From positions 1 to 52,260 of the forward strand of contig JAEUKZ010000155.1 of the NCBI GenBank assembly GCA_016793045.1: DNA of 52,260 nucleotides, read 5' to 3'. Shown here piece by piece: positions 4,688-52,260 of the stretch. Under the pieces are notes generated by a model. That model saw only the letters and a list, made by a program, of their open reading frames with translations, was not told where the DNA came from and made no database searches. The translations under genes were made by a program, and so were the position numbers. Source of the stretch: Alphaproteobacteria bacterium (GTDB lineage Bacteria > Pseudomonadota > Alphaproteobacteria > CACIAM-22H2). How positions within the stretch are numbered: position 1 is the first letter of the stretch; every line of letters begins with the position of its first letter.

Positions 4688-4791
4688 TCGGCGCCGCCGC
4701 GATGCGGCCGATTTGCGGTCCGGCGCGTTTGCTATCCTGGATCAATTCCGGACTGCGTCCGCCGGCGCAGCCTTGTCGCCGGTGAAGAATC

Positions 4792-5772: not shown

Positions 5773-5791
5773 TCCGCAAAGCCCGGTCCGC

Positions 5792-7768
5792 TCACGGCGT
5801 GCGCGCCTCGGGCGGCAGCGCCGCGACGGCCATGCTCGCCGCCGCGGCGGCCGCCGTCGGCGCGCCGCCGGCGCCCTGGACCGTCACCGCGTTGCTCGCG
5901 AACTCGATGCCCTTGTCTGCGAACGTCTTGACGATGCGCTTGAGGGCCTGGCGCTGCACCCAGGTCGGCTTGACCGGACGCGCGGTGAACTTGAGGCGCA
6001 CGACCAGCGCGTTGTCGGCGATGTCGGCGACGCCCTGCATCTTGAGCGGCTGGATCAGCTCGGCCTTGAGCTCGGGGTCGTCCATCATCTCCTGGCCGAT
6101 CTTCTTCACGGTCTTGCGCACGAGCTCGACGTCGACGTCGCGCACCAGCCGGATGTTGAACTTCATCGTCGCCCAGTCGCGGCTGAAATTGGTGATCGAG
6201 CCGAGCTGCCCGAATGGGATCGTGTGGACCTGCCCGTTCTGGTGCCGCAGCTTGATCGAGCGGATCGAGATCGCCTCCACGGTGCCCTTGAGGCGCCCGG
6301 TGTCGATGTACTCGCCGATGCGAAAGGCGTCGTCGGCGATGAAGAAGATGCCCGAGACGATGTCGCGCACGAGCGCCTGCGAGCCGAAGCTGATCGCGAG
6401 GCCGAAGATGCTTGCGCCCGCGATCAGCGGCGCCGTGTTGACGCCGAGCTCCGAGAGCGCGACGAGCACGGTCAGGACCAGGATCGACACCGCGATCAGC
6501 ACGCGGAACAGCGGCATCAGCGTGGTCAGGCGCGATGCCGGCGAGGCCTGTTCGTCGTCCTCGCCCGGCATCGACGGTCCGCGCGCGGCGCCGATCTTGT
6601 GGTCGATCCAATGGCGCAACGCTTCCCAGGCGACGAAGCCGAAGAGCACGACGCTGCCGGCTGTGAGGATCGAGCGCCGTGCGCTGCGCCAAGCCTCGGG
6701 GCCGATCAGCTCGAGCTGGCCGACGGCCCAGGTCTCGATGACGATCCAGCCGATCGCAAGGATGGACAGCAGCCGGACGGTGCGCCGCAGCGCCCCGGCG
6801 AGCGTGCGCTGCGAGGACAGGCCGAGCAGCGCGTCGGCGAGATAGGCGAGCACGACGACGATGGCGGTTCCGACCAGCGCGTCGAAGGCCGCGAGGTCGA
6901 CGAGCAGCACGCCCAGGGTCCAGGCGATCCACAGCGCGCCGGTCATGACGAGCGCGCCGGTGCGCCACCGCTGCGCGAGCGGCGGCTCCATGCGCAGCAA
7001 CGACGCCGCCGTCCAGCCCGCGACCGCGATACCGATCAGCAGTGCGAGCAGCTGCACGGCGGCGACGGGCGCGCCGGCGGCGATGAACACCGGCAGTGTC
7101 GCCATGGTCAGGACCACGGCAGCAATGACCGCCGCGGCAAGGTGGTGGAGGCGGCGCGCCGTGCCGTCATCGAGAGCGACGAGGCGCAGCGCCGGCAGGC
7201 CCGGGCGCAGGATCGCGCCGACGACGAGCATGGCGATCCAGAATCGCACCGCCGACGGTCCGAGGATCGCGGCTGCGAGGCGGCCCTGGTGTGTCACCGG
7301 CGGGAACAGCAGGCGCACGCCGACCACCGCCACCAGTATTGCGACCACGCGGTCGATCAGCTCGAGTCCGAGCACCATCAATGCGGCGCGCGCGCCGATG
7401 CGGCCTTCCGCCGGCGGCGTGGCGAAGCGCGTGCGCGCACCTGACGTCGCGCGGCGCGTCAGCACGACCAGTGCGGCCATGATCGCCAGTGTCGCGAGAA
7501 GCGCGAGGACGAACCCGGTCGCGGAGCGCGGGCCGCCCGCGGGCGCCGCGAAATCGGCTCGCCCGAGCGCACCGAGGAATTCCGGGCTGATCGCAGCGAT
7601 CGCTTCGACGCTTGCGCGTATCGTCTCCAGCCGCTCTTCGATCAGCGACCCTTCGCGCTCGGCGAAGATCCGTTGCGGCTCGACCGCAAGCGCGGTTCCG
7701 GCTCCGCCGGCGTGGAGAAGCGCGGCGACCGCCACTTGACGGGCACCGCGCAGCCGTGGACGTCGCAT
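5792..7768 (-). CDS. Large MscS-family mechanosensitive channel
   Basis: Multi-TM N-terminus, then GLAISFGSQALVRDIVSG, FRIGEYI and GTVEAISIRS. Confidence 0.9.
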   Translation of the reverse strand: MRRPRLRGARQVAVAALLHAGGAGTALAVEPQRIFAEREGSLIEERLETIRASVEAIAAISPEFLGALGRADFAAPAGGPRSATGFVLALLATLAIMAALVVLTRRATSGARTRFATPPAEGRIGARAALMVLGLELIDRVVAILVAVVGVRLLFPPVTHQGRLAAAILGPSAVRFWIAMLVVGAILRPGLPALRLVALDDGTARRLHHLAAAVIAAVVLTMATLPVFIAAGAPVAAVQLLALLIGIAVAGWTAASLLRMEPPLAQRWRTGALVMTGALWIAWTLGVLLVDLAAFDALVGTAIVVVLAYLADALLGLSSQRTLAGALRRTVRLLSILAIGWIVIETWAVGQLELIGPEAWRSARRSILTAGSVVLFGFVAWEALRHWIDHKIGAARGPSMPGEDDEQASPASRLTTLMPLFRVLIAVSILVLTVLVALSELGVNTAPLIAGASIFGLAISFGSQALVRDIVSGIFFIADDAFRIGEYIDTGRLKGTVEAISIRSIKLRHQNGQVHTIPFGQLGSITNFSRDWATMKFNIRLVRDVDVELVRKTVKKIGQEMMDDPELKAELIQPLKMQGVADIADNALVVRLKFTARPVKPTWVQRQALKRIVKTFADKGIEFASNAVTVQGAGGAPTAAAAAASMAVAALPPEARTP

Positions 7769-23856: not shown

Positions 23857-24507
23857 TCAGGCCCGACGGCCGGCCGGCCGAGCCTCGAGATCGGCGACAT
23901 CGAGGCGTTTGAGTTCGAAACGCTCGTTGAGCCGCACATAAGACCCGCCGCCGCCAAGCCGCCCGATCAGGGCGAGCCGGTCCTGGTCGATCCGCAGGCG
24001 ATCGTCGACGATGTCGTCGCGGACATGCAGCTGGACGACCTCGCCCAGGATCAGCTTGCGTGCCGGACCCGGCAGCGCGATGGTCCGCCACGCGCGGCAT
24101 TCGAGCGCCGCCGGCGCGACCGCGATGCGCGGCGGCTTCACCTTCGCGGACCTTGCCATTTCGAGTCCGGCATAGGCGGTCTCGTCCTCGCCGGCCGGCA
24201 GGGCCACGGCACAGACGTTCATCGCCGGCAGCAGCGTCTCGTCGACGAGATTGACCACGAACTCGCCGGTGTCGCCGATGTTGACGGCGGTGTCCTTCGG
24301 AACCGTTTCGTCTTCCTCGCGCGCATCGACGCTGATGATGACCAGGGGGGGCTCGTCGCTCAGAACGTTGAAGAAGCTGAACGGCGCCGCGTTGACCCTG
24401 CCGGCCGACGAGACCGTGGTGACGAGCGCGATCGGCCGTGGCACGACCAGGCCGATCAGCAGCTTGTAGCGGTCCTCGGCGGATAGCGCCGCGAAGTCGA
24501 AATCCAT
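23857..24507 (-). CDS. Flavin reductase-like FMN-binding protein
   Basis: YKLLIGLVVPRPIALVTT, NAAPFSFFN, KDTAVNI and ALECR. Confidence 0.88.
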   Translation of the reverse strand: MDFDFAALSAEDRYKLLIGLVVPRPIALVTTVSSAGRVNAAPFSFFNVLSDEPPLVIISVDAREEDETVPKDTAVNIGDTGEFVVNLVDETLLPAMNVCAVALPAGEDETAYAGLEMARSAKVKPPRIAVAPAALECRAWRTIALPGPARKLILGEVVQLHVRDDIVDDRLRIDQDRLALIGRLGGGGSYVRLNERFELKRLDVADLEARPAGRRA

Positions 24508-34750: not shown

Positions 34751-34962
34751 GGATCGGCCGCGGCCCGAACGGCACCGTCGTCACCGGCGCGCGGACCGGG
34801 GGAGCGGGCCGACCTGCCGCACGGCGAAATCATCGACCGCGCGCGAGGCGCAGCATCTCGTCGATGGCATGGCTCGCATGGGCGACCGGCCGCACCCCTT
34901 GCGGAGGTCGAGGTCCCTTCGCTACGGTCGCCCGACATAACGCGCCGTTGCCCAGGACCATC

Positions 34963-35466
34963 ATGACCGATCGTGCCGACATCCTCGCCCGCGAACTCGA
35001 GGCGGCGTTTCGCAGCCGGGCGCTGCTCTATTGGTCGATCTATGACGAACTGAGGCGCGAGGTCGGCGCGGAGCGCGCCGAGGCGATCCTTGGCCGCGCC
35101 ATCGAACGGCGCGGTGCCGCCGCGGGCGCTGCGCTGTTCGCCGGGCTGGCGGAGCGGACGCCTGCCGCCGTCGCTCAGGCTTTTCTGGCGGTGAGCCCGA
35201 ACGGCGGCACGATGTATCCGCACGAGGTGCAGCGCGATCCCGACGGCGCGGTGCATGTGAAGGTGACGCGGTGTCCGCTCAAGGATGCATGGACCGAAGC
35301 GGGCCTCGGCGGCGAGGACCTTCAGACGATCTGCCGAATTGCCGGGCGCTTCGATACCGGCTGCTTCGGGCAGTCCGGAGTTGCGTTCGCTGCGGATACG
35401 TGGGCGCCGGGATCGACAGGCTGCTGCCAGCTCCATCTCCGCGCCGCGCCCGGGGGCGCGCGCTGA
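34963..35466 (+). CDS. L-2-amino-thiazoline-4-carboxylate hydrolase-like protein (ATC_hydrolase family)
   Basis: Helical N-terminus, then VTRCPL..AW...G, ICRIA..FD and CCQL pattern, recognised from memory. Confidence 0.6.
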   Translation: MTDRADILARELEAAFRSRALLYWSIYDELRREVGAERAEAILGRAIERRGAAAGAALFAGLAERTPAAVAQAFLAVSPNGGTMYPHEVQRDPDGAVHVKVTRCPLKDAWTEAGLGGEDLQTICRIAGRFDTGCFGQSGVAFAADTWAPGSTGCCQLHLRAAPGGAR

Positions 35467-35534
35467 ACCGATCCTTGACGCGGCCCACGCGCGCGCGTCG
35501 TACGACGACAATGACAGGCAACGAGGATACGCCC

Positions 35535-37121
35535 ATGAAGGCGCTTGGACTGGCCACGCTCGCCAAAGCGACTGCGATGCTGTTCGTGGCGGCTGTCGCC
35601 GCCGCCGGGCCGCTTGCGGCGCAGGACCTGCGCATCGGGCTCGGCTCGGCCGTCACCTCGACGGACCCGCAGTTCACCGTGCTCGGCAGCAACAGCGCGC
35701 TCGCCCGCAACGTCTTCGACGGCCTGATCAACCAGGACAACCGCCAGCAGCTCGTGCCCGGGCTCGCCACGGCGTGGCGAGCCGTGGACGACACGACCTG
35801 GGAACTCACCCTGCGCCGCGGCGTGAAATTTCATGACGGCAGCGACTTCACGGCCGAGGACGTCGTTGCCTCGATCCGCCGCATCCCTTCCATCCGCAAC
35901 AGCCCGAGCTCTTTTCTGCCCTTCGTGCGCCCGATCAGTGCGGTTACCGCCGTCGATACCCACACCGTACGCATTCAGACCAACGGTCCATACCCGCTGC
36001 TGCCGGCGGCGTTGAGCCGCATCGCCATCGTCACGCGCAGCGCCGAGCAGGCGACGCAGGAGGATTTCAACGCGGCACGGCTCGCCTTCGGCACCGGGCC
36101 GTACAAGCTTGTCGAATTCGTGCCCGGCGATCGCATCGTCCTGCGCCGGAACGATGCCTACTGGGGCGAACGTCCGCGCTGGCAGAACGTCATCTTCCGT
36201 ATCATCACCGGCGACGCGCCGCGCGTTGCCGCGCTGCTCTCCGGCGATCTCGACGTCATCGAGAACGTGCCCACCGGCAGCGTCCAGCGGCTGCGCCAGG
36301 ACGGCCGCGTGCGTCTGACGACCGTGGTCAGCAACCGGATCATGTACATCCATCTCGACAGCGATCGCGCGCAGTCGCCGTTCGTGCGCGATCGCGCCGG
36401 CAACCCGGCCCCCAATCACCTGCGCGACGTGCGCGTGCGCCGCGCAATCAGTACCGCGATCGATCGCCAGGCGCTGGTCCAGCGCATCATGGACGGCGAG
36501 GGCGTGCCTGCCGGCCAGCTCGTGCCGGAAGGCTATTTCGGCTACGTGCCGAGCCTTGCCGCCCCGCGCGGCGACCGCGACGAGGCCCGCCGCCTTCTGG
36601 CGGAGGCCGGCATTCCCGATGGATTCCGCCTGACCTTCCATGCCCCGAACGACCGCTATCCGAACGACGAACAGGTCGCGGTGGCTATCGCATCGATGCT
36701 GTCCCGCGCGGGGATCGAGACGCAAGTTGTCGCGCTGCCGGCATCGGTGTATTTCACCCGCGCTTCGAACCTGGAGTTCAGCTTCATCCTCGGCGGCGCG
36801 GCTGCGGAGACGGGCGAGGCCTCGGGAACTCTGCGGCCGTTGCTGGCGACCTTCAACACCCAGCGCGGGGCCGGGTCGGGCAATCGCGGGCGCTATTCGA
36901 ACGCGCGCTTCGACGCCTTGCTCGACAGGGCGCTGGCGACGGTCGACGATCAGGCGCGCGAGCGCCTGCTGCGCGAGGCGACCGAGATCGGCATCGGCGA
37001 GCTCGGCGTCATCCCGCTGTTTTTCCTCGTCAACACCTGGGCGGCACGTCCCGGCTTCGAGTATGCCGGACGCAGCGACGGCTACACGCTGGTCGAGAAT
37101 GTCACCAATGCCGCGCGCTGA
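35535..37121 (+). CDS. ABC substrate-binding protein, family 5 (DppA-like)
   Basis: GAGGA RBS, signal peptide, PGLATAW, LRRGVKFHDG, GTGPY and RVRRAI. Confidence 0.92.
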   Translation: MKALGLATLAKATAMLFVAAVAAAGPLAAQDLRIGLGSAVTSTDPQFTVLGSNSALARNVFDGLINQDNRQQLVPGLATAWRAVDDTTWELTLRRGVKFHDGSDFTAEDVVASIRRIPSIRNSPSSFLPFVRPISAVTAVDTHTVRIQTNGPYPLLPAALSRIAIVTRSAEQATQEDFNAARLAFGTGPYKLVEFVPGDRIVLRRNDAYWGERPRWQNVIFRIITGDAPRVAALLSGDLDVIENVPTGSVQRLRQDGRVRLTTVVSNRIMYIHLDSDRAQSPFVRDRAGNPAPNHLRDVRVRRAISTAIDRQALVQRIMDGEGVPAGQLVPEGYFGYVPSLAAPRGDRDEARRLLAEAGIPDGFRLTFHAPNDRYPNDEQVAVAIASMLSRAGIETQVVALPASVYFTRASNLEFSFILGGAAAETGEASGTLRPLLATFNTQRGAGSGNRGRYSNARFDALLDRALATVDDQARERLLREATEIGIGELGVIPLFFLVNTWAARPGFEYAGRSDGYTLVENVTNAAR

Positions 37122-38067
37122 CCGCATCCCGGTCGTCATCGACACCGATCCCGGCGTCGACGATGCGGTGACGATCCTGGCGGCGCTCGCGGCGCCCGAG
37201 CTCGACGTGCGCGCAATCAGCGTCGTGCATGGCAACGTCGAGCTCGATCGCGCGATCGAGAACGCGCGGCGCGTCGTCACTTTCGCCGGCCGCGGCGACG
37301 TGCCGATCCATGCCGGCACGACGCGCCCGCTCCTGCGCTCGCCGATGCGCGGAAAGTTCCACGGCAGCAAGGGCCTCGGGCCGCTCGAACTGCCCGAACC
37401 GACGGTGACGCTCCAGACCGAGCACGCGGTCGATGCGATGGCGCGCATGCTGCGCGCGGCTGCGAGCGGCGCGGAGCCGCTGCTGACCATCTGCGCGATC
37501 GGACCGCTGACGAACGTGGCGCTCGTTCTTGCCAAGGAGCCGGCGCTCGTCGCGGGGATTGCGCGCATCGTCCTCATGGGCGGCGCCTTCGCCGAAGGCG
37601 GCAATCGCACCGCGACCGCCGAATTCAATCTGCTCGCGGACCCGCACGCGGCGCAGATCGTGTTTGCCAGCGGGGCTCCGATCGTGATGGCGCCGCTCGA
37701 CGTCACCCATCGCGCAATGGCGACGCCGGAGCGCGTGGCGGAGCTGCGCAGGCGCGGCGGGCGCATGGCCGTCGCCGTCGCCGATCTGCTCGCCTTCTTC
37801 GATCGCAAGGACCCGGCGCGCTATGGCGTGCATGGCGCGCCCGTCCACGACCCGACCGTGATCGCCTATCTGCTGCGGCCGGAGCTCTTCACGATCCGGC
37901 GGACCTATGTGGAAGTCTGCACGTCCGAAGGCCTGGCCTTCGGGCAGAGCGTGGCCGACTGGTGGGGAACCACAGGCAGGCCGGCCAATACGGACGTCAT
38001 GATCGGACTCGATGCCGACGGCTTCTTCGATCTGCTGGGCGGGCTGCTGGCGCGCTATCCCGCCTGA
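37108..38067 (+). CDS. Nucleoside hydrolase (IU-NH family)
   Basis: DTDPGVDDA, GPLTNVA, MGG, AEFN...DP.AA and HDP. Confidence 0.93.
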   Translation: MPRADRIPVVIDTDPGVDDAVTILAALAAPELDVRAISVVHGNVELDRAIENARRVVTFAGRGDVPIHAGTTRPLLRSPMRGKFHGSKGLGPLELPEPTVTLQTEHAVDAMARMLRAAASGAEPLLTICAIGPLTNVALVLAKEPALVAGIARIVLMGGAFAEGGNRTATAEFNLLADPHAAQIVFASGAPIVMAPLDVTHRAMATPERVAELRRRGGRMAVAVADLLAFFDRKDPARYGVHGAPVHDPTVIAYLLRPELFTIRRTYVEVCTSEGLAFGQSVADWWGTTGRPANTDVMIGLDADGFFDLLGGLLARYPA

Positions 38068-42958: not shown

Positions 42959-43669
42959 ATGACGCAGCGCATCCTGGTGATCAATCCGAACTCGTCGCAG
43001 CGCGTCACCGATGCGATCAGCGCCGCTGTGGCGGCCTTGCGGCTGCCGGGCGGCCCCGCCGTCGATTGCATCTGCCTTCCCGATGGCCCCGCCGGCATCG
43101 AGACGCAAGACCATGTCGACCATGCGGGCCGACTGGTCGCGCGAGCGGTCGCGCAGCACGAACATGCCGCTGATGCCTTCGTCGTCGCCTGCTTTTCCGA
43201 TCCCGGGCTGCACGCGGCACGCGAGGCGACCGCGAAGCCGGTCATGGGAATCGCCGAGAGCGGCCTTCTCACGGCGATGGCGCTTGGCAATCATATCGGC
43301 GTCATCTCGATTCTTGCGGCCTCGTTGCCGCGCCACTGGCGCTATTTCAGGGCGATGGGAATCGACGGCCGCGTGGTCGCCGACCTGCCGGTCGGGCTTG
43401 GTGTCGCTGCGTTGTCCGACGAGACCACGACATTCGCCCGCATGCGCGAGGTTGGGCGCGCCTTGATCGAGGAGCATGGCGCAGACGTGCTGGTGATGGG
43501 CTGCGCCGGCATGGCGCGCTATCGCGCCCCGCTCGAGGACGCACTCGGCCGCCCCGTGGTCGACCCGTCGCAGGCGGCGGTCGGCATGGCGTTGACGGCG
43601 CTGCGTTTCAACATGCGCACGTCCATCGCGCGGCCGGAAAAGCCGCGCGTCGCTGTGGCCGGCGAGTAG
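42959..43669 (+). CDS. Asp/Glu/hydantoin racemase
   Basis: ILVINPNSS, with catalytic Cys pair ACFSDPG and MGCAGM. Confidence 0.9.
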   Translation: MTQRILVINPNSSQRVTDAISAAVAALRLPGGPAVDCICLPDGPAGIETQDHVDHAGRLVARAVAQHEHAADAFVVACFSDPGLHAAREATAKPVMGIAESGLLTAMALGNHIGVISILAASLPRHWRYFRAMGIDGRVVADLPVGLGVAALSDETTTFARMREVGRALIEEHGADVLVMGCAGMARYRAPLEDALGRPVVDPSQAAVGMALTALRFNMRTSIARPEKPRVAVAGE

Positions 43670-43670
43670 T

Positions 43671-45083
43671 TCAGGCCGACGGCAGGGCTGCCGAGCGCTC
43701 GCGGCTGTAGAACCTGCCGCGGCCGCGCTGGCCGAGCACCTTGCCGCCGTCCCATACCACCTCGCCGCGCGAGATCGTCGTCACCGGCCAGCCCGTGACC
43801 TGCCGACCCTCGTATGGGGTGTAGTCCATCGCGTCGTGCAGCATCGACTGGGTGACGGTCAGCCTGCGCTCCGGGTCCCAGATCGCGAGATCGGCATCGC
43901 CGCCGACTACGATGCTGCCCTTGCGCGGATAGAGTCCGTAGAGCTTGGCGTGATTGGTCGCGGTCAGCGCGACGAACTGCTGCAGCGTGATCCGCCCCGT
44001 CCGCACGCCCTCGGAGAACAGCAGCGGCAGACGCAGCTCGAGGCCGGGCACGCCATTGGCGATCTTCTTGAAGTTGGCGTTGAGCCCGAACTTCATCTTG
44101 CCTTCGGGATCGTTGAAGCGGAAAGGCGAGTGGTCGGAGGAGAAGACCTCGAACACGCCGCCGGCGAGCGCTTGCCAGACCTTCTCCTGGTTCGCCTTGT
44201 CGCGCGGCGGCGGGCTGCACATGCACTTCGCGCCTTCGAGGCCGGGCTTGTCGAGATCCTCCTCCGACAGGAAGAGATATTGCGGGCACGTCTCGGCATA
44301 GACCTTGTTGCCGCGTGCCTGCGCCCAGCGGATCTGCTCGATCGCCTCGGCGCCGGAAACGTGGACGATCAGCACTGGCGTGTCGGCGATCTCCGCAAGC
44401 GCGATCGCCCGGTGCGTCGCTTCGCGCTCGACCGGCTGCGGACGCGACACGGCGTGGTATTTCGGCGCGGTCAGCCCTTCGCAGATCAGGCGGTTGGCGC
44501 GCCACATCATCGCGTCGTGGTTCTCGGCGTGGATCATCACCATGGCGCCTTCGCGCCGCGCGACGTCGAGCACCTCGAGAAGCTGCCCGTCGCTCACCTT
44601 GAGCGCGTCGTAGGTGAGGTAGACCTTGAACGAGGTGTAGCCGTCCTTGATCAGCGCCGGCAGCTCCTGGCCGACGACTTGCTCAGTCGGGTCGGAGACG
44701 ATGAGGTGGAACGCGTAGTCGATCACGGCCTTGGGGCCGGCAGCCTCGTGATACTGCTTCACCACCTCGCGCACCGACATGCCGCGATGCTGGCAGGCGA
44801 ACGGTACGATGGTCGTCGTGCCGCCGCACATCGCAGAGACCGTGCCGCTGTAGAAGTCGTCGGCGGACATCAGCCCGGTCGAAGTGCGCTGCTCGATGTG
44901 GCAGTGGCTGTCGATCCCGCCGGGCATGACCAGTCGATCGCGCGCGTCGATTTCCCGCGCGCCCTTGGTCAGACGCTCGCCGATCGCGGCAACGCGCCCG
45001 CCGCGGATCCCTATATCCGCGGTGAACACGTCGGCTGCGGTGGCGATTTTGCCGCCGCGCACCACCAGATCGAATTCGCTCAT
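43671..45083 (-). CDS. hydA: Dihydropyrimidinase / D-hydantoinase
   Basis: PGGIDSHCH, SFKVY (carboxylated Lys), HAE, HVS, ETCPQY and SSDH. Confidence 0.93.
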   Translation of the reverse strand: MSEFDLVVRGGKIATAADVFTADIGIRGGRVAAIGERLTKGAREIDARDRLVMPGGIDSHCHIEQRTSTGLMSADDFYSGTVSAMCGGTTTIVPFACQHRGMSVREVVKQYHEAAGPKAVIDYAFHLIVSDPTEQVVGQELPALIKDGYTSFKVYLTYDALKVSDGQLLEVLDVARREGAMVMIHAENHDAMMWRANRLICEGLTAPKYHAVSRPQPVEREATHRAIALAEIADTPVLIVHVSGAEAIEQIRWAQARGNKVYAETCPQYLFLSEEDLDKPGLEGAKCMCSPPPRDKANQEKVWQALAGGVFEVFSSDHSPFRFNDPEGKMKFGLNANFKKIANGVPGLELRLPLLFSEGVRTGRITLQQFVALTATNHAKLYGLYPRKGSIVVGGDADLAIWDPERRLTVTQSMLHDAMDYTPYEGRQVTGWPVTTISRGEVVWDGGKVLGQRGRGRFYSRERSAALPSA

Positions 45084-45103
45084 CTTGTCTTTCCTCGTTC
45101 GTA

Positions 45104-45787
45104 CTACATGCGCGCGGCGTGGCTCGCGATCATGCGGCGCTCCATCCGGGAAACGACGCGCACCAGCGGCCACAGCAGCACGAAGTAGATCAGCGCCGCG
45201 GCGATCAACGGTGTCGGATTGTAGACCAGTCCCTGGAGGAGTTGCGCCGAGCGCAGCAGCTCGGGCAGCGAGACGGCCGCCGCAATCGACGTGATCTTGA
45301 TCAGCTCGAGCGTGTTGGTGGTGAGCGGGGGCAGGACGTTGCGTACCGCCTGCGGCAGAACGACATGGCGCATGGTCGCGAGCCATCCGAGCCCGGTTGA
45401 TCGGGCGGCGTCACGCTGGCCCTGCGGCACCGCCTCGATGCCGGCACGGAAGATCTCCCCGTAGTAGCTGGCGCCGTTGATGACGAGCGTGAAGACGGCC
45501 GCTTGAAACTCCCCGAGGCGCAAGCCCAGGAACGGCAGTCCGTAGTAGACGAGGATCAGCAGGACGAGCGGCGGGAAGGCGCGCAGCAGGTCGACGTATA
45601 CGATCAGGACCGCGTTCAGCCAGCGCAGGCCCAGCCCCTGCAGCATCGCGACGATCAGCCCTGCCATCACCGAGAGCGGCACGATCACGAGCACGAGCTT
45701 GAACGTCATCCACAGCCCGCTCGCGAGAATCGGCCAGCCCTCGCGCAGGGTCTCGAGATTGGCGAAGTTGTGGAGAAATACTTCCAT
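45104..45787 (-). CDS. Polar amino acid ABC permease
   Basis: SYYGEIFRAGI...QRDAA and VLPQAVR. Confidence 0.92.
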   Translation of the reverse strand: MEVFLHNFANLETLREGWPILASGLWMTFKLVLVIVPLSVMAGLIVAMLQGLGLRWLNAVLIVYVDLLRAFPPLVLLILVYYGLPFLGLRLGEFQAAVFTLVINGASYYGEIFRAGIEAVPQGQRDAARSTGLGWLATMRHVVLPQAVRNVLPPLTTNTLELIKITSIAAAVSLPELLRSAQLLQGLVYNPTPLIAAALIYFVLLWPLVRVVSRMERRMIASHAARM

Positions 45788-46470
45788 CAGCGCCTCCAGC
45801 CGTAGCGCCGCTCGAGCCAGCGCGTGAACATCACCAGGGGCGCGAAGATCACCAGGAAGAGGAACGCGGCGAAAGTGAGCGGCGATGGATTTGCGAGCGA
45901 GGACTGCGCACTGGAGGCCTGCGACAGGATCTCCGGCACGGCGACGAAGCTGCCCAGCGCGGTCGACTTGGTGATCGCGATCACCCAGTTGGTGAGCGGG
46001 GGGATCGCGAGCCGCACCGCCTGCGGCAGGATGATGTAGCCGAGCGTCTCGAGGAATCCGAGCCCGGTCGAGCGTGCGGCCTCCCACTGGCCCCGATCCA
46101 CGGCTGTAATGCCGGCCCAGAAGACCTCTTCGGAGAATCCCGCGAGCACGAGGATGAGGCTGATCGTCGTCGCCCAGAACGGGCTGAACGTCAGTCCGGC
46201 AAAGGGCAGGGCGAAGAACACCACGACGATGATCACGAGCGCCGGCACCGCCCGGAACAGGTCGACGAAGAAGATGATCGCCCAGTTGAGCGGTCGGATC
46301 TGGAACGCCCGGACCACCGCGAGCGCGAGGCCCAGCGCGGTCCCGCCCGTCACCACCAGGGCAGCCATGCCGAGCGTCAGCCAGAACCCCGCCATGATCT
46401 CGGGCGCGGCCTGCGCCATCATGTCGAAATTGAAGAAGTAGTAGAGCAGCCCGTGCGGTTCGGGGTTCAT
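45787..46470 (-). CDS. Polar amino acid ABC permease
   Basis: FRAVP, GQWEAARSTG and ILPQAVR. Confidence 0.92.
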   Translation of the reverse strand: MNPEPHGLLYYFFNFDMMAQAAPEIMAGFWLTLGMAALVVTGGTALGLALAVVRAFQIRPLNWAIIFFVDLFRAVPALVIIVVVFFALPFAGLTFSPFWATTISLILVLAGFSEEVFWAGITAVDRGQWEAARSTGLGFLETLGYIILPQAVRLAIPPLTNWVIAITKSTALGSFVAVPEILSQASSAQSSLANPSPLTFAAFLFLVIFAPLVMFTRWLERRYGWRR

Positions 46471-46492
46471 GTGCGCTCTTCCCGAATCCGCC

Positions 46493-47248
46493 TCACCGGT
46501 GCAGCACCCGCGCGAGGAAGCTCGCGGTTCGCTTGTGCTGGGGCGCGCCGAAGATCTGCGCTGGCGGGCCCTGCTCGACGATCTCGCCTTCGTCCATGAA
46601 GATGACGCGGTCGGCCGCCTCGCGCGCGAAGCCCATCTCGTGGGTCACGACGAGCATCGTCATGCCGCGCTCCCGCATCCGGCGCATAACGTCGAGCACG
46701 CCGCCGACCAGTTCGGGGTCGAGCGCCGAGGTGGGTTCGTCGAAGAGCATCACCTTGGGTTCCAGCGCCAGCGCGCGCGCGATGCCGACGCGCTGCTGCT
46801 GGCCGCCCGAAAGCTGGCCGGGATGGACCGCCGCCTTCTCCGCCAGGCCGACCTCGGCAAGGACGGCCCGGCCGCGCGCCTCAGCCGCTGCTTTGTCCAT
46901 GCCGAGCACGCGGCGCAGAGCCAGCGTCACGTTGTCGAGCGCGGTGAGATGCGGATAGAGATTGAACGACTGGAACACCATCCCGATGTCCTTGCGGACC
47001 TTGTTCATGTCGACGCCGGGATCGGTGATGGTGCGGCCGTCGAACATGATCGTGCCGGCGCTTGGTTCTTCCAGGCGGTTCAGACAGCGCAGCAGCGTCG
47101 ACTTCCCTGAACCCGAAGGCCCGATGACGACGATGACCTCGCGCCGCAGCACGTCAAGATCGACACCCTTGAGAACGTCGAGCTTGCCGAAATGCTTGGT
47201 GAGGCCGCGGATCGTCAGGATCGGCGGCGACGCCCTGTCCACGCTCAC
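46493..47248 (-). CDS. Polar amino acid ABC ATPase (GlnQ-like)
   Basis: [18 protein letters not shown] and [11 protein letters not shown]. Confidence 0.95.
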
Positions 47249-47360
47249 GGCCGCTCAACCACGGAGACAGCGGGGCGCGGAGCCGCGAGGGGAGGCCCCG
47301 CGGCGTGTCCGGGACGCCGCGCCCTGCATTCTCGGTGCTCCGTGCCGCTGCGGCCGGCTC

Positions 47361-48233
47361 TCAAGGCGCCTTGTATCCGGCGAAGTTCGGCTGGCCGCGG
47401 CCCGGTTGCGGCGTGACCATGATCGAGCCCGGCTCGGCCGGTGCGCCGAAATAGGTCTGGTGCGTGCGCGAGTAGAACCCGTCGCTCTTCATGCTCTCGA
47501 CCACCGCGTCCACGGCGTCGCGCATCGCCTCGTCGTCGAGACGGAACGGGTAGCCGAGGAAGGTGCCGGTCGGAATGTTGAAGCCGAACTTGAGTGCCGG
47601 CTGCTGGGTTGAGATGTAGCGCGCCACCGGCGTCTCGGAAATGTTGGCGAAGGCGCGATTCGACAGCACGGCCTGCACCGCATCGGGGTTGCTGTTGTAG
47701 CGCTCGACGGTGAATCCGTACCGCGTCGCGTTCTCGGTCGCCCAGGTGTCGGAGATCGAGCCGCGGTTGACGCCGATCACCTTGCCGCGCAGGTCCTCGA
47801 GCGTGCGCACGTCCGGCGCGTTGCGCGCCATCAGGAAGCCAAGTCCGCTCTCGAAATAGCCTTCGCTGAACAGCATCTGGGTCGCGCGCGCGGCGGTGAT
47901 GTTGACCGGCCCCACGAAGGTCTCGAATCGCCCGGCGAACAGGCCGGCAAAGGCCTCCGCGAAGCGCACGTCGATGATCTCGGTCGATGGCCGCCCGAGT
48001 CGACGGCCGATCTCGCGCGCCGCGTCGATCGAAAATCCGGTCAGCTCGCCGTTCGGTCGGCGAAAGGCGAACGGCACGAAGCCGACCTCGATCCCGACGG
48101 TGAAAGGCTGGCCCGCACGCGGATCGCGCGCCTGCGCCCGCGCCGTACGCAGGCCTGGAATGACGGCGGCCGCAGCCATACCGCCAAGCAGAGTCCGGCG
48201 CGTGAACCGGAAGGCGCCCCGTGCTGTCTTCAT
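47361..48233 (-). CDS. ABC substrate-binding protein family 3, Tat signal
   Basis: AAGGAG RBS, TRRTLL, GFVPF, GFSIDAA and GVNRGS. Confidence 0.9.
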   Translation of the reverse strand: MKTARGAFRFTRRTLLGGMAAAAVIPGLRTARAQARDPRAGQPFTVGIEVGFVPFAFRRPNGELTGFSIDAAREIGRRLGRPSTEIIDVRFAEAFAGLFAGRFETFVGPVNITAARATQMLFSEGYFESGLGFLMARNAPDVRTLEDLRGKVIGVNRGSISDTWATENATRYGFTVERYNSNPDAVQAVLSNRAFANISETPVARYISTQQPALKFGFNIPTGTFLGYPFRLDDEAMRDAVDAVVESMKSDGFYSRTHQTYFGAPAEPGSIMVTPQPGRGQPNFAGYKAP

Positions 48234-48354
48234 ATTTCGCTCCTTGAAACTGGCTTGCGCGAACGCGCGTGGTGCGGAAACTCCGATCAAGTATGATCGC
48301 GGTCCTAGTCACGCGCAATCGCCGTGCCGACACGCGCAGCATCGGGCATACGTC

Positions 48355-49893
48355 ATGGATCTCATACTCAAGGGCCGCTACCTCATCGCCGATCCGCGCA
48401 GCGGGCCGTCCTCCATACAGGCCGACGCGGCCGTCGCGATCAAGGACGGGCTCATTGCAGAGGTCGGATCGGCGGCGGCGCTGATCGCCAGGCATCCCGG
48501 GACCCGCGTGCTGGGCAATGGCAGGCAGCTGCTGATGCCCGGGTTGATCGACGCGCATTCGCACGGCCGCGGCCTGTCGCCGATCCAGAAGGGCGTGCGC
48601 TACGACTTCCTGGAGAACAACCTGCTCGATTGGGCGCACATGGTCGTGCTGCCGCCGGAGCTCTGCGCCGCGGTCTGTGCGGTCAAGCATCTGCGCGCCG
48701 GTGCGACGACAATCCACCACTACGGTTTCAATGACGAAGGCCCGCAGGCTGTCGCGAACGCGGAAGCGGGGATCAAGGCATATCTCGGCACCGGCATCCG
48801 GCTTGCATATTCCCCGGGGGTACGGAACATCAACCGGATCACTCTCGACGACGCGGATTTCGTGCAGTCGTTGCCCGACAATCTGCGCAGCCGCGTGGCG
48901 CCGCTGGCGAACTACGATCCCGATGCGATCGAGGATGCGTATTTCGCGCTGTTCGACCATCTCCACGCGCGATTCAACAGCACCGACACCAGGATCATCC
49001 TCGGCCCGAGCTGGGCGCACGGTTCGACCGCCCGCTTCCTCAGAAACTGCAAGGCCCGGGCCGATGCGCTCGGCAAGATTCCCGTCCACGTTCACACGCT
49101 GCAGACGCCGCACCAGCGCGCCTACGGTGAATGGAAGTACGGCAAGTCGCTGGTCGCTATGCTCGACGACGTCGGGCTCGTCGACAGCAACCTCGTGCTC
49201 GGCCACGCGATCTACTCGACCGAGGCGGACATCGAGCGGCTGGGGGCCGCGCGCGCCACCGTGACGCACCACCCGAGCTGCAACTTCAACATGCGCAACG
49301 GCATCGCGCCGATCCCGCACATGATGGCGGCGGGGGTGACGATCGCGCTTGGTCTCGACGACAAGGGCATCAACGACGACGAGGACGCGATCATGGAGCT
49401 GCGCATGGTGCACAAGATGCACCGCCTCGCCGGCTACGATCTCGCCGCCACGCCGGCGATGGACGCGTTCGACGTGCTGCGCATCGGCACGGTCAACGGC
49501 GCGCGTGCGACCGGATTTGGCGACACGCTCGGGGCGCTCGTTCCGGGCATGAAGGCCGACGCCATCCTGGTCGACCTCGACGAGGTTCTCGAGGACCCCT
49601 GGTGGTCGGGCGACCTCGACATCGCGGAGATGTTCGTCCACCGCGCCAAGGGCCATCACGTGGCGAGCGTTGTCGTCGGCGGCAAGGTCGTGATCGAGGA
49701 TCGCCGATTCAAGACGATCGACGTCGAGGCGCTCTGGCGCGAGGTGCGCGCGGTCTGCGCGCGCGGACTGCCGCCGGCGCAGAAGGAGTACGCCGCGCTG
49801 ATGGACGCGATCAAACCGCATGCGCAGGCGTGGTACGCGCGATGGCAGAGGCCTTTCGGCGAACCCTATTATCGCGTCAACGCGCGCAACTGA
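48355..49893 (+). CDS. Metal-dependent amidohydrolase (AtzA/TrzN/deaminase-like subtype)
   Basis: PGLIDAHSH, HTLQ, GHA, HHPSCN, GLDD, GTVNGA and PGMKAD. Confidence 0.88.
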   Translation: MDLILKGRYLIADPRSGPSSIQADAAVAIKDGLIAEVGSAAALIARHPGTRVLGNGRQLLMPGLIDAHSHGRGLSPIQKGVRYDFLENNLLDWAHMVVLPPELCAAVCAVKHLRAGATTIHHYGFNDEGPQAVANAEAGIKAYLGTGIRLAYSPGVRNINRITLDDADFVQSLPDNLRSRVAPLANYDPDAIEDAYFALFDHLHARFNSTDTRIILGPSWAHGSTARFLRNCKARADALGKIPVHVHTLQTPHQRAYGEWKYGKSLVAMLDDVGLVDSNLVLGHAIYSTEADIERLGAARATVTHHPSCNFNMRNGIAPIPHMMAAGVTIALGLDDKGINDDEDAIMELRMVHKMHRLAGYDLAATPAMDAFDVLRIGTVNGARATGFGDTLGALVPGMKADAILVDLDEVLEDPWWSGDLDIAEMFVHRAKGHHVASVVVGGKVVIEDRRFKTIDVEALWREVRAVCARGLPPAQKEYAALMDAIKPHAQAWYARWQRPFGEPYYRVNARN

Positions 49894-49911
49894 GAGCGGA
49901 GCAGATCCAAG

Positions 49912-50865
49912 ATGGCACGGAATGTGACCGTAGCCGGCTGCCAGATGGGGCCGGTCAGCCGCAATGAAGGCCGGCAGGTTGTCGTCAAGCGCCTGATGGA
50001 CATGATGCGCGCGGCACACGCCAAAGGCGCGCGGCTCTGCGTGTTCCCGGAGACCGCGCTGACGACTTTCTTCCCGCGCTGGTACATGCCGGACTGGAAC
50101 GAGGTCGATACGTTCTTCGAGACGGAGATGCCCGGCCCGGCGACGCGCCCGCTCTTCGATCTCGCGGCCGAACTCGGGGTCGGCTTCTATCTCGGCTATG
50201 CCGAGAAGATCCAGGAGAACGGCGTCTGGCATCGCTACAACACCGCGATCCTGGTCGACCGCCAGGCGAAGATCGTCGGCAAGTACCGCAAGGTCCATCT
50301 TCCGGGCCATTCGGAGCTCGATCCCAAGCGGCCGTGGCAGCATCTCGAGAAGCGCTATTTCGAGGTCGGCAATCTCGGCTTTCCGACCTGGCGCCTGCAT
50401 GATCCCGAGCTCGGCAACGCCGTGATGGGAATGTGCATCTGCAACGACCGGCGCTGGCCGGAAACCTGGCGCGTCATGGGCCTGCGCGGCGTCGAGCTCG
50501 TGATGCTCGGCTACAACACGCCGTCATGGAACGCGCTCGGCGGCGGCGAGGATCCCAAGTTGCGCCTGTTCCACAACCAGCTCTCGCTGCAGGCCGGCTG
50601 CTACCAGAACGGCTGCTACGCCGTCGGCGTCGCGCGTGCAGGGCTGGAGGACGGCGTCGAGATGATGGCCGGCAGCTGCATCGTCGCGCCGTCGGGCGAG
50701 GTGATGGTCGAAACGAGGACGTCGGGCGACGAGGTGATCGCCGCGACGCTCGATCTGGACGTCTGCCAGTTCAACAAGTCGACGATCTTCAACTTCGCCG
50801 CCCATCGCCGAATCGAACACTACGGCATCATCACCAGCCAGACCGCGGCGACGCCGCCGGAGTGA
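49912..50865 (+). CDS. N-carbamoyl-D-amino acid amidohydrolase (nitrilase fold)
   Basis: FPETALTTFFPRW (Glu), YRKVHLPGH (Lys), HLEKRYF and ICNDRRWPE (Cys). Confidence 0.92.
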   Translation: MARNVTVAGCQMGPVSRNEGRQVVVKRLMDMMRAAHAKGARLCVFPETALTTFFPRWYMPDWNEVDTFFETEMPGPATRPLFDLAAELGVGFYLGYAEKIQENGVWHRYNTAILVDRQAKIVGKYRKVHLPGHSELDPKRPWQHLEKRYFEVGNLGFPTWRLHDPELGNAVMGMCICNDRRWPETWRVMGLRGVELVMLGYNTPSWNALGGGEDPKLRLFHNQLSLQAGCYQNGCYAVGVARAGLEDGVEMMAGSCIVAPSGEVMVETRTSGDEVIAATLDLDVCQFNKSTIFNFAAHRRIEHYGIITSQTAATPPE

Positions 50866-50870
50866 TCCGA

Positions 50871-51839
50871 ATGACCAGCCGCATCACCGAGACCGCGAAG
50901 GGCGTCTACATCATCGCAGCGACGCCGTTCACCGACTCCGGGACGCTTGATCTCGAATCGACCGACCGTATGGTGGATTTCTACCTCTCCTGCGGGGTCG
51001 ACGGGCTCACCATCCTCGGCGTGATGGGCGAGGCACCCAAGCTGTCGGCCGAGGAATCGACGGCATTCGCCGACCGGGTTCTGAAGCGCGTCGCCGGCAG
51101 GGTGCCGGTCATCGTCGGCGCGAGTGCGCCCGCCCTCGCCCCGATGCAGGCGCTCACGGCCAAGGTGATGGATCTCGGCGCCGCCGGCGTCATGGTCTCG
51201 CCGATGACCGGCTTGCGCACCGACGAGGCGACCGAGAATTACGTTGCCTCGGTCGTGAAGGCGCTCGGTGCCGACGTGCCGATCGTACTACAGGATTATC
51301 CGGCACTCTCCGCCGTCTACATGTCGGTGCCGCTGGTCGACCGGCTGTTCAAGACGTTCCCCAGCCTCAAGGTGCTCAAGCACGAGGACTGCCCGGGGCA
51401 TCGCAAGCTGACGCGGCTGCGCGCCAGCGAGGCGCGCGGCGAACGCAGGCGCATCTCCATCCTGGTCGGCAATTCCGCACTCTATCTGCCGCAGGAGCTG
51501 CGTCGCGGCGCCGACGGGGCCAACACCGGCTTTGCCTATCCGGAGATGCTCGTCCAAGTCTGCAAGCTGTTCTTCGCCGGTGATGCGGACGCGGCGGAGG
51601 ACCTCTACGACGCCTATCTGCCGCTCGTGCGGCACGAGCAGCAGCCCGGCGTCGGCCTCGCCATCCGCAAGGAGGTGTTGCGCCGCCGCGGCGTCATCGC
51701 TTCGGCGGCTTGCCGGGCTCCCGGCCCGTCACTGGATGCCGACGACCACAAGGAACTCGACGGCCTGGTACGCCGCCTCGATCGCAAGCTTGCCGATCTC
51801 GGCGAAGCATCGCAGCCTGCGCGGCGCGGGGCGAGGTAG
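50871..51839 (+). CDS. DapA/N-acetylneuraminate lyase-family aldolase
   Basis: ATPF, GVMGE, VLQDYP and LKHE (Schiff-base Lys). Confidence 0.85.
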   Translation: MTSRITETAKGVYIIAATPFTDSGTLDLESTDRMVDFYLSCGVDGLTILGVMGEAPKLSAEESTAFADRVLKRVAGRVPVIVGASAPALAPMQALTAKVMDLGAAGVMVSPMTGLRTDEATENYVASVVKALGADVPIVLQDYPALSAVYMSVPLVDRLFKTFPSLKVLKHEDCPGHRKLTRLRASEARGERRRISILVGNSALYLPQELRRGADGANTGFAYPEMLVQVCKLFFAGDADAAEDLYDAYLPLVRHEQQPGVGLAIRKEVLRRRGVIASAACRAPGPSLDADDHKELDGLVRRLDRKLADLGEASQPARRGAR

Positions 51840-51882: not shown

Positions 51883-52215
51883 CTACGCCTTCGCCAGTTC
51901 CCGCTTCAACTCCGCGGCCAGGAAGCCCGGTAGCGCTTCGGGCAGCACCTGCCGCGTCTCGTTGATGTGCAACGGCTCGTAGAGGCCGGCCCGGGTGTAG
52001 GGGTCTTCCGCCAGATAGCGGTCGAGCGCCGCACGGTCAGGCAGATCGAGGACCATCAGGCTGCCGACCATCCTGCCGGCGTCGTCGAGCAGCGCGCCGC
52101 CGTAGCGGAAAATCTCCGTCCGCGAACTGATGAATGCAAGATGCGCGGCACGGGTCCGTCGTCGCACCTCTGCGCCGTCGGGCTTGCGGTCGTAGCCGTG
52201 AATGACGAAAAGCAT
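51883..52215 (-). CDS. YciI-family protein
   Basis: RRRTRAAHL, GGALL, GSLMV and EDPY..AG. Confidence 0.85.
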   Translation of the reverse strand: MLFVIHGYDRKPDGAEVRRRTRAAHLAFISSRTEIFRYGGALLDDAGRMVGSLMVLDLPDRAALDRYLAEDPYTRAGLYEPLHINETRQVLPEALPGFLAAELKRELAKA

Positions 52216-52260
52216 GCGGTTGTCCTCTGCGGTTCGGCGGTGCCAGATCAACCAAGACTG

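Follow-up and report, generated by a model that had tools for sequence, protein, structure and literature searches.

The window that we analysed is a stretch of 52,260 nucleotides from an alphaproteobacterium (GenBank contig JAEUKZ010000155.1). It makes up the whole of contig C42 of a draft genome, G000, which is rated 100% complete yet consists of 462 contigs. Our subject is a group of genes near its end, for a hydantoin-type racemase (RAC), a D-hydantoinase (HYD), a D-carbamoylase (DCASE), an ATP-binding cassette (ABC) importer, an amidohydrolase that we call AMHB and a protein of the DHDPS family (Table 1). The sequence is about 70% GC and long spurious frames are common in it. Genes were called on third-position GC and then checked against family models, and every gene named here was found at its coordinates with the high third-position GC of a real coding frame. 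The binding protein, the ATPase, the two permeases and HYD form, in this order of transcription, a minus-strand operon with short gaps and with HYD as the last gene. The plus-strand operon starts with AMHB and continues, after gaps of 18 and 5 nt, with DCASE and the DHDPS-family gene. RAC converges on HYD with a 1-nt gap, and the gene for a 3-hydroxyacyl-CoA dehydrogenase lies 62 nt upstream of RAC. The region is a co-inherited catabolic module, made of two divergent operons and a convergent racemase gene.

Table 1. Genes and features of the cluster. Positions count from the first nucleotide of the window.
Feature	Position	Strand	Length and family
RAC	42959-43669	+	236 aa; Asp/Glu/hydantoin racemase family, PF01177
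HYD	43671-45083	-	470 aa; D-hydantoinase/dihydropyrimidinase, NF009941 and TIGR02033
ABC permease 2	45104-45787	-	227 aa; PF00528, TIGR01726 HEQRo permease domain
ABC permease 1	45787-46470	-	227 aa; PF00528; top NCBIfam matches EhuD and cystine permease, below cut-off
ABC ATPase	46493-47248	-	251 aa; PF00005; GlnQ/EhuA-like, under equivalog cut-offs
Periplasmic binding protein, family 3 (SBP_bac_3)	47361-48233	-	290 aa; PF00497; twin-arginine translocation (Tat) signal
Divergent promoter region, importer operon/AMHB operon	48234-48354		holds the conserved element CGATCAAGTATGATCG at 48284-48299
AMHB	48355-49893	+	512 aa; Gln-type COG0402 (TRZ/ATZ-like) amidohydrolase, Amidohydro_1
DCASE	49912-50865	+	317 aa; N-carbamoyl-D-amino-acid hydrolase, PF00795
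DHDPS/NAL-family protein	50871-51839	+	322 aa; PF00701

RAC matches PF01177 with an E-value of 2.6e-53, has both catalytic cysteine motifs (ACFSDPG with Cys78 and GCAGM with Cys182), and is nearest among solved structures to the allantoin and hydantoin racemases 3qvj, 2eq5 and 5lfd. NCBIfam holds no equivalog that splits hydantoin racemases from allantoin racemases; RAC is probably a (thio)hydantoin racemase. On NF009941 HYD reaches 798 bits (cut-off 647), and on the D-hydantoinase model TIGR02033 it reaches 572 bits (cut-off 393); its nearest solved structure is the D-hydantoinase 1nfg (E 7e-132). Its metal-ligand motifs are those of a binuclear site with a carbamylated lysine, and they are intact (His60/His62, Lys153, His185, His241 and Asp317). 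Solved N-carbamoyl-D-amino-acid hydrolases (6lei and 1fo6, also 1erz) match DCASE with an E-value of 2e-114 and about 58% identity. DCASE conserves the Glu47, Lys127, Cys177 triad of the CN-hydrolase fold, the Arg-Arg carboxylate clamp and the substrate motifs ICNDRRW and GYNTP. A preliminary description of the region, made from the sequence alone, had called the catalytic residues of all three enzymes intact, and the motifs bear this out. Judged by these family matches, the set is a member of the known hydantoin-utilization (hyu) kind.

Other contigs of the genome carry relatives of these enzymes. On C222 (about 3700-7590) a second D-carbamoylase paralogue, 56-60% identical, adjoins an M20 hydrolase and a 2,3-diaminopropionate ammonia-lyase that is 43% identical to E. 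coli YgeX, a set reminiscent of how the reductive urate pathway ends, with albizziin and diaminopropionate. On C396 (18700-28500) a D-hydantoinase paralogue, 69% identical to HYD, lies by a GntR regulator, a creatinase/prolidase-type M24 peptidase, a GMC oxidoreductase and an enolase-superfamily protein, in what looks like another cyclic-amide cluster.

Clusters of the hyu kind have been described from Agrobacterium, Bradyrhizobium, Arthrobacter and Pseudomonas NS671, and for decades it has not been clear on which substrates their D-hydantoinases, D-carbamoylases and hydantoin racemases act in nature (PMC3546935). The window shares with these clusters the three enzymes with the same catalytic motifs and a dedicated transporter. 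It differs from them in two respects. Firstly, a Gln-type COG0402 amidohydrolase heads the carbamoylase operon and a DHDPS-family gene is added. Secondly, the importer is a Tat-exported family-3 ABC system rather than an NCS1 or a tripartite ATP-independent periplasmic (TRAP) transporter. In the hyu clusters that we inspected, found via D-carbamoylase homologues, AMHB is absent. For example, the plasmid-borne cluster of Sulfitobacter sp. W027 has a LysR regulator, a D-carbamoylase, a racemase, a dihydropyrimidinase, a TRAP transporter and a flavin reductase, and is without AMHB.

AMHB falls under every NCBIfam cut-off, and its matches in the PDB are distant only: 4dzh, AtzA (4v1x) and the methylthioadenosine/S-adenosylhomocysteine deaminase 4f0r. 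A comparison of 20 homologues from several phyla shows no variation at His68, His70, His247, Gln250, His284 and Asp335. The HxH motif (after strand 1), His247 (after strand 5), His284 (after strand 6) and Asp335 (after strand 8) align with 4dzh and AtzA, as in the TRZ/ATZ subgroup of COG0402. However, AMHB has His247-Thr-Leu-Gln250 where the COG0402 deaminases and chlorohydrolases carry HxxE (4dzh, AtzA and SsnA all have the Glu). In COG0402 enzymes the glutamate of HxxE protonates the ring or the leaving group, so a glutamine in its place would plausibly suit a good leaving group or a ring that is already polarised. The extra amidohydrolase of the preliminary description is therefore there, with a catalytic set that is not fully canonical, and the deamination suggested there is not supported, with the deaminase glutamate replaced by Gln throughout the family. 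Among the relatives, AtzA, TrzN and AtzB hydrolytically displace substituents on a ring carbon; TrzN accepts -SCH3, and AtzB-type enzymes displace alkylamines. An assignment of AMHB as an SsnA orthologue was rejected, since the two proteins are just 24% identical and the SsnA of E. coli has retained HxxE. In a tree of the family the AMHB orthologues are cleanly split from the paralogues of 33% identity. One such paralogue lies in the same genome on C118 (21300-31200), within 10 kb of a racemase paralogue (29%) and an SsnA-like amidohydrolase.

We chose AMHB as the most discriminating gene with which to trace the co-inheritance of the cluster. The gene is present in one of 401 evenly sampled genomes of the window's class, in one of 401 sampled genomes of the order that holds the Variovorax centre genome, and in none of about 36 genomes of the window's own family, which have paralogues of about 33% identity only. 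The plasmid collection likewise yielded no orthologues, only paralogues of about 30% among creatininase or CN-hydrolase genes. When species representatives were scanned with a pattern, 23 AMHB loci were recovered, all 47-58% identical to the window's AMHB, from the Pseudomonadota, Thermodesulfobacteriota, Rokubacteria/Methylomirabilota, Spirochaetota and Bacillota. A protein search returned more than 700 homologues, mostly metagenomic. This is a widespread family with an invariant Glu-to-Gln exchange in a well-studied catalytic motif, and is worth characterising.

The neighbourhoods of these genes vary. The relative L024 (93% identical) has the complete arrangement of the window. In L027 (79%) RAC, HYD, the importer, AMHB and DCASE are retained, and an epimerase and an acetyltransferase occupy the place of the DHDPS gene; in L028 (66%) the binding protein is divergent from an AMHB-DCASE pair. 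Three beta-proteobacterial metagenome-assembled genomes (MAGs; L017, L019 and L020) have RAC, HYD (60%), DCASE (51%), AMHB and the importer in a different order. The loci of the Variovorax, Comamonas and Burkholderiaceae type (L014, L016, L018 and L022) place the importer, a DHDPS-like gene and AMHB in one operon, facing genes for a 288-aa protein without family match, a cyclic amidohydrolase, an M20 hydrolase, a flavin reductase and RAC. On the metagenome contigs L108 and L110 the order is NCS1 permease, AMHB, D-hydantoinase and M20 carbamoylase, while in L072 and L078 AMHB is paired with a CN-hydrolase and a hydantoinase-like protein. In Desulfobacterota loci, proteins of the creatininase and asparaginase families fill the amidase and hydrolase places. 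What these arrangements have in common is AMHB next to an amidase for five-membered rings and a hydrolase of carbamoyl or amide groups, and the families that fill the last two roles are swappable. RAC orthologues of 50-69% identity occur in every architecture that joins AMHB to hyu genes. The importer, AMHB, the racemase and the amidase/carbamoylase pair are co-inherited across gene orders and non-homologous replacements, which is the co-conservation that the preliminary description had put forward as a check.

Some details of the Desulfobacterota-type loci can be added. In these (L030:6193-9536, L001, L003, L012, L079 and L081) AMHB follows a creatininase-family gene that scores below the creatininase equivalog cut-off. 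An asparaginase-family gene and, under an IclR regulator, an ABC importer of the Liv type are often found there too.

Several AMHB loci point to the breakdown of ergothioneine. The steps of the ergothioneine (ert) pathway are carried out by ergothionase, thiourocanate hydratase (ErtB), thiohydantoin desulfurase (DUF917, NF058529), ErtD and ErtE; it reportedly comes from the work of Muramatsu et al. on Burkholderia sp. HME13. In the Variovorax-type loci the cyclic amidohydrolase is ErtD, the hydantoin-5-propionate amidohydrolase (691 bits, NCBIfam cut-off 600), and the M20 enzyme is ErtE, the N-carbamyl-L-glutamate amidohydrolase (630 bits, cut-off 520). A canonical ert cluster, on a plasmid of Burkholderia sp. 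JSH-S8, encodes proteins that match these two with 73% and 65% identity; it also has an aromatic amino-acid lyase, a thiourocanate hydratase (1043 bits, cut-off 930) and a DUF917 thiohydantoin desulfurase (603 bits, cut-off 440). Because ErtD and ErtE lie above their cut-offs, the 5-substituent in the Variovorax loci should be propionate. A second link is seen in L034, a Burkholderiales MAG, where AMHB is divergent from a thiourocanate hydratase ErtB (1001 bits, cut-off 930). The operon that starts with this AMHB further encodes a TRAP transporter, a D-hydantoinase of the window's subfamily, a D-carbamoylase and a flavin reductase; a convergent racemase gene and ABC-importer genes come after it. 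The window proteins are 58% (HYD), 52% (DCASE), 59% (RAC) and 55% (AMHB) identical to those of L034, and the metagenome contig L120 repeats the junction of ErtB-UbiD with AMHB.

Two genomes, G436 and G437, are the only AMHB genomes that we found to have a thiourocanate hydratase above cut-off. Both hold AMHB, RAC, a D-hydantoinase and a D-carbamoylase, and in neither was a PF06032/DUF917 thiohydantoin desulfurase, or an ErtD above cut-off, detected. In these genomes the route from thiourocanate to glutamate would need substitutes for the desulfurase, for the amidase that opens the ring and for the carbamoylase, and AMHB, RAC with the D-hydantoinase, and the D-carbamoylase are the linked candidates. 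This suggests a non-orthologous replacement of the canonical enzymes.

Thiourocanate hydratase genes in these loci are always paired with a gene for a UbiD-family decarboxylase (L034:6818-9848, L067:8888-11996 and L120), which in L034 and L067 has a TRAP transporter as its neighbour. The UbiD gene is missing from canonical ert clusters.

The window itself has none of the canonical enzymes. Neither a thiohydantoin desulfurase (DUF917, NF058529/PF06032) nor an ErtD or ErtE above cut-off is present in it, and the cluster has no M20 gene. The only PF06032 gene of the genome lies on C377, by a HyuA-like open reading frame, and is 27% identical to the canonical enzyme. Judged by the five ert family tests, each of which came out negative in the window, the cluster does not belong to the ert pathway, although it probably functions in the manner of that pathway's lower half.

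We read the module as a variant of the lower part of the route that degrades ergothioneine or 2-thioimidazoles, assembled from the classical D-selective enzymes of the hydantoinase process. We propose that AMHB makes a 5-substituted hydantoin from a 2-substituted imidazolidinone that the cell has imported, the most likely substrate being 2-thiohydantoin-5-propionate and the product hydantoin-5-propionate, and that racemase, hydantoinase and carbamoylase take the product on to D-glutamate. We offer this tentatively, as a reading that may well be right though we would stop short of calling it probable. The Tat-exported binding protein and the ABC importer would bring in a small carboxylated 2-substituted imidazolidinone. 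The lead candidate is 3-(5-oxo-2-thioxoimidazolidin-4-yl)propionate (2-thiohydantoin-5-propionate), with 2-alkylthio or 2-imino analogues as alternatives. AMHB, as a mononuclear-metal COG0402 hydrolase, would then exchange the C2 substituent for oxygen and release hydrogen sulfide, a thiol or an amine. RAC would equilibrate C5, HYD would open the ring to N-carbamoyl-D-glutamate, and DCASE would yield D-glutamate, ammonia and carbon dioxide. Racemisation, ring opening and decarbamoylation are strongly predicted, resting as they do on family assignments. We infer the AMHB reaction, the imported substrate, the identity of the 5-substituent, the stereochemical outcome and the control of the operons. 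The order of import, hydrolysis to a hydantoin, racemisation, ring opening and decarbamoylation had already been suggested in the preliminary description and fits the comparative genomics, and a cyclic amino-acid derivative, one of the substrate types named there, is compatible with our data. The substrate can be narrowed further, to imidazolidinones derived from histidine or ergothioneine.

The likeness to the ert cluster is that its lower three steps match the proposal (2-thiohydantoin to hydantoin, to N-carbamoyl amino acid, to amino acid), and that AMHB orthologues stand beside a true ErtB, or a true ErtD and ErtE, in other bacteria. There are also differences. Ring opening and decarbamoylation in the window would be D-selective, with a racemase, and lead to D-glutamate rather than L-glutamate. 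Furthermore, the proposed desulfurising enzyme has an amidohydrolase fold and not that of DUF917. It is possible, although we doubt it, that AMHB is a new hydrolytic enzyme that removes sulfur or alkylthiol from C2 of 2-thiohydantoins, i.e. a non-homologous replacement of the DUF917 desulfurase.

A number of observations weigh against the proposed route. HYD scores 245 and 212 bits on the ErtD models, which have cut-offs of 650 and 600. The tree of AMHB does not resolve the window's clade as sister of the clade linked to Ert genes. Among the 21 other AMHB-bearing genomes none has an ErtB above cut-off, and the window's genome has neither ErtA (ergothionase) nor ErtB; its best match to NF058530 (ErtB) is a HutU-like urocanase on C409 with 669 bits against a cut-off of 930. 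The substrate would thus have to come from outside the cell. In the Variovorax loci the racemase, the 288-aa protein or the flavin reductase could perform the missing step instead of AMHB. Finally, most of the 80 metagenome AMHB loci have no hyu or ert neighbour. A tally of Pfam families among 146 neighbouring proteins, taken from the first 56 or so of these loci, gave nine ABC permeases, eight intradiol dioxygenase domains, five NCS1 permeases and two creatininases. Neighbours this heterogeneous indicate that the AMHB family may have more than one function or substrate.

One alternative is that two unrelated modules have come to lie side by side: an ordinary hyu set acting on racemic 5-monosubstituted hydantoins, and an independent AMHB, with or without the DHDPS-family protein, acting on another heterocycle. 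Hyu sets without AMHB are indeed common, with the Sulfitobacter plasmid as one example and others in PMC3546935, and most AMHB orthologues are not beside hyu genes. However, a gene found in about one of 400 genomes nonetheless occurs within a hyu or ert set in at least eight gene arrangements, in each of which it lies by a five-membered-ring amidase and a carbamoyl or amide hydrolase, and with three types of transporter. It is also often in the same operon as its partners, e.g. the AMHB-DCASE pair of the window or NCS1-AMHB-hydantoinase-M20 in L110. The rarity of AMHB together with this repeated linkage makes a chance juxtaposition unlikely, and we regard two separate modules as an unlikely explanation.

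Another possibility concerns the group that leaves C2. The substrate could be a 2-amino or 2-alkylamino imidazol-4-one of the creatinine/glycocyamidine type, including arginine-derived hydroimidazolones such as MG-H1. AMHB would then displace ammonia or an amine at C2 to give, e.g., 5-methylhydantoin, which the three following enzymes would convert to, e.g., D-alanine. The binding protein lends this some support. It has a Tat signal with the twin-arginine motif T-R-R-T-L-L, so that with its PF00497 match the polar-amino-acid importer with an exported binding protein of the preliminary description was recovered. It belongs to the Lys/Arg/Orn-His-Gln type. As in the LAO/HisJ/GlnH family, the Arg that binds the carboxylate (T-x-x-R) is invariant, and an acidic residue, Glu, is at the alpha-ammonium position (Asp157 in GlnH, Asp161 in HisJ). 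As far as these residues go, the site suits a ligand with a carboxylate and N-H donors, which also fits the carboxylated imidazolidinone of our main proposal. The AtzB-type relatives with their alkylamine leaving groups are in keeping with such a reaction, as are the creatininase-family proteins that adjoin AMHB in the Desulfobacterota and in two metagenome loci.

The creatinine deaminase route is a known system that resembles such a scheme, running from creatinine through N-methylhydantoin and N-carbamoylsarcosine to sarcosine (PMC12623156). It shares with the window an enzyme of the amidohydrolase superfamily that turns a 2-amino-imidazolone into a hydantoin, followed by ring opening and decarbamoylation. 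That route employs a Glu-type cytosine/creatinine deaminase, an ATP-dependent N-methylhydantoinase and an isochorismatase-type amidase, and needs no racemase. Against an amine leaving group are the curated Variovorax partners, which are specific for hydantoin-5-propionate and N-carbamyl-L-glutamate, and the adjacency to ErtB, which indicates a 2-thioxo ring. The loss of the proton-shuttling Glu argues against a poor leaving group such as an amine, and the NCS1 permeases by AMHB suggest small neutral heterocycles. Furthermore, the searchable literature has no enzymatic link between hydroimidazolones and hydantoins, including one from MG-H1 to 5-methylhydantoin. We consider this alternative quite unlikely. 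An ectoine-type substrate was rejected, as all the matches to the Ehu transporter are below cut-off and Doe genes are absent.

The route to D-glutamate ends with DCASE and leaves the DHDPS-family gene without a part. The preliminary description had placed an aldol cleavage last, and one could envisage a full linear pathway in which this DapA-family enzyme acts after decarbamoylation, which implies a hydroxylated or sugar-like 5-substituent. The gene is 5 nt from DCASE, its protein keeps the Schiff-base lysine of strand 6 (Lys170 aligns with that of 3dz1, L-2-keto-3-deoxyarabonate dehydratase and DapA, as expected for the family fold), and a related gene is present in the Variovorax operon. Accessory genes of the sugar-acid type are also found, namely a PfkB kinase and an HpcH/HpaI aldolase in L028, and an FGGY kinase, an aldo-keto reductase and an epimerase in L027. 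On the other hand, the protein is not DapA (89 bits on the equivalog TIGR00674, cut-off 206). Its nearest structure is 3dz1 (E 1e-85), an uncharacterised structural-genomics protein, followed by L-2-keto-3-deoxyarabonate dehydratase (3fkk, 7c0c), so that the nearest characterised relative is a dehydratase. The gene is present only in L024 and, at 41% identity, in the Variovorax-type loci, and is missing from L027, L028, L017, L019, L020, L034, L108 and L110. The Variovorax-type orthologues (L018:9050-9976, L022:9073-9930 and L016:1937-2797) have Asn in place of the Schiff-base Lys (ILNSED/ILNTED for VLKHED), still inside the operon of importer and AMHB. Their best match in the window's genome is the DHDPS-family protein of the window (184 against 129 bits). 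In addition, a D-amino acid would need oxidation before a Schiff-base aldolase could act, and no enzyme for this is found in the cluster. A terminal aldol cleavage seems very improbable. The patchy occurrence, the likeness to dehydratases and the Lys-to-Asn exchange lead us to treat the gene as an unexplained, lineage-specific accessory, not as a terminal aldolase.

We also compared the cluster with nucleobase catabolism. If it belonged to a standard reductive pyrimidine or allantoin/purine route, RAC would be an allantoin racemase and HYD an allantoinase. RAC is about equally similar to solved allantoin racemases and to the solved hydantoin racemase, and HYD belongs to the dihydropyrimidinase family. 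However, HYD scores 264 bits on the allantoinase models, under their cut-off of 358, DCASE is close to the alpha-specific D-carbamoylases and keeps their carboxylate clamp, and ureidoglycolate and ureidoglycine enzymes are absent from the cluster. A search of the genome (E 1e-10, at least 50% coverage) found no homologue of PreA, the dihydropyrimidine dehydrogenase component, and for PreT gave only GltD-like matches of 28-30% identity. With no PreA/PydA-type dehydrogenase found in this search and with the HYD paralogue on C396 in a setting of its own, the reductive pyrimidine pathway was rejected, and with it the outcome by which, according to the preliminary description, the idea of a hydantoinase-process pathway would have failed, i.e. 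an enzyme set for standard pyrimidine reduction only. We give nucleobase catabolism almost no credence.

A purine-derived precedent for an amidohydrolase that acts ahead of a hydantoinase does exist. E. coli and C. difficile have a reductive uric-acid pathway that involves SsnA, HyuA, YgeY/YgeW and YgeX, and the SsnA of E. coli feeds a 5-substituted hydantoin to the hydantoinase HyuA (bioRxiv 10.1101/2025.05.19.654654). As in our proposal, a TRZ/ATZ-type amidohydrolase makes the 5-substituted hydantoin, a D-hydantoinase opens the ring and ureido groups are then removed. The window differs in being without XdhD/YgfK reductases, in its aerobic setting, and in having a racemase and a D-carbamoylase of the CN-hydrolase type.

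In the searchable literature, which does not reach the primary ert papers, we found no account of the AMHB family or of a link between AMHB and hyu or ert genes. The same literature yielded nothing on a hyu cluster with a TRZ/ATZ hydrolase, nor on the thiohydantoin desulfurase. If AMHB is indeed such a C2-desulfurising enzyme, then hydantoin racemase, D-hydantoinase and D-carbamoylase would have a natural part in salvaging, as D-glutamate, (thio)hydantoin-5-propionate that is derived from ergothioneine or histidine and supplied by cross-feeding between microbes. This compound is a concrete and cheaply testable candidate for the long-open natural substrate of the hydantoinase-process enzymes, and our data connect these enzymes with how microbes process the dietary antioxidant ergothioneine. 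If AMHB cleaves C-S bonds hydrolytically, the thiohydantoin desulfurase step would have been solved twice, by unrelated enzymes. Genetics is feasible, since there are cultured Variovorax isolates with the orthologous cluster, LT1R16 and UMC13 among them.

The divergent promoter region offers some clues to the control of the two operons. The element CGATCAAGTATGATCG (GATCA-N4-TGATC) lies within it, and its core AGTATGA does not vary between the window, L024, L027 and L028, i.e. in relatives down to 66% AMHB protein identity. It may be a -10 element or an operator. A consensus scan of the divergent region gave no match to a sigma-70 promoter, and terminators were no more frequent than by chance. 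The preliminary description stated that no regulator lies in the cluster. Within the coordinates of the cluster this holds, but an AraC-family regulator is found about 1.5 kb beyond the stop codon of the DHDPS gene. The last 141 nt of the window (52120-52260) are identical to the reverse complement of an end of contig C182 and join the two contigs. Past the DHDPS gene follow a YciI gene and, on C182, an AlaX-like gene, the AraC-family regulator and an S-adenosylmethionine-dependent methyltransferase. The last three have the same order in L024.

The wider surroundings do not appear to belong to the module, contrary to the suggestion that it is embedded in a larger catabolic pathway: the flanks travel with the cluster only in the 93% relative. 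The genes for an enoyl-CoA hydratase, the 3-hydroxyacyl-CoA dehydrogenase, two thioesterases and an aminotransferase were rejected as part of the pathway, being syntenic only in L024. For the same reason we rejected three co-directional genes at 34864-38067, which encode an ATC_hydrolase-family protein, an orphan family-5 binding protein (SBP_bac_5) and an inosine-uridine nucleoside hydrolase, and whose conservation does not follow that of the hyu cluster. Hyu-type clusters repeatedly contain a flavin-reductase gene without an obvious partner oxygenase (L018:1440-2093, L034:17131-17742 and L052:15819-16418), and a homologue of 45% identity is found in the window at 23878-24507, 19 kb upstream of the cluster.

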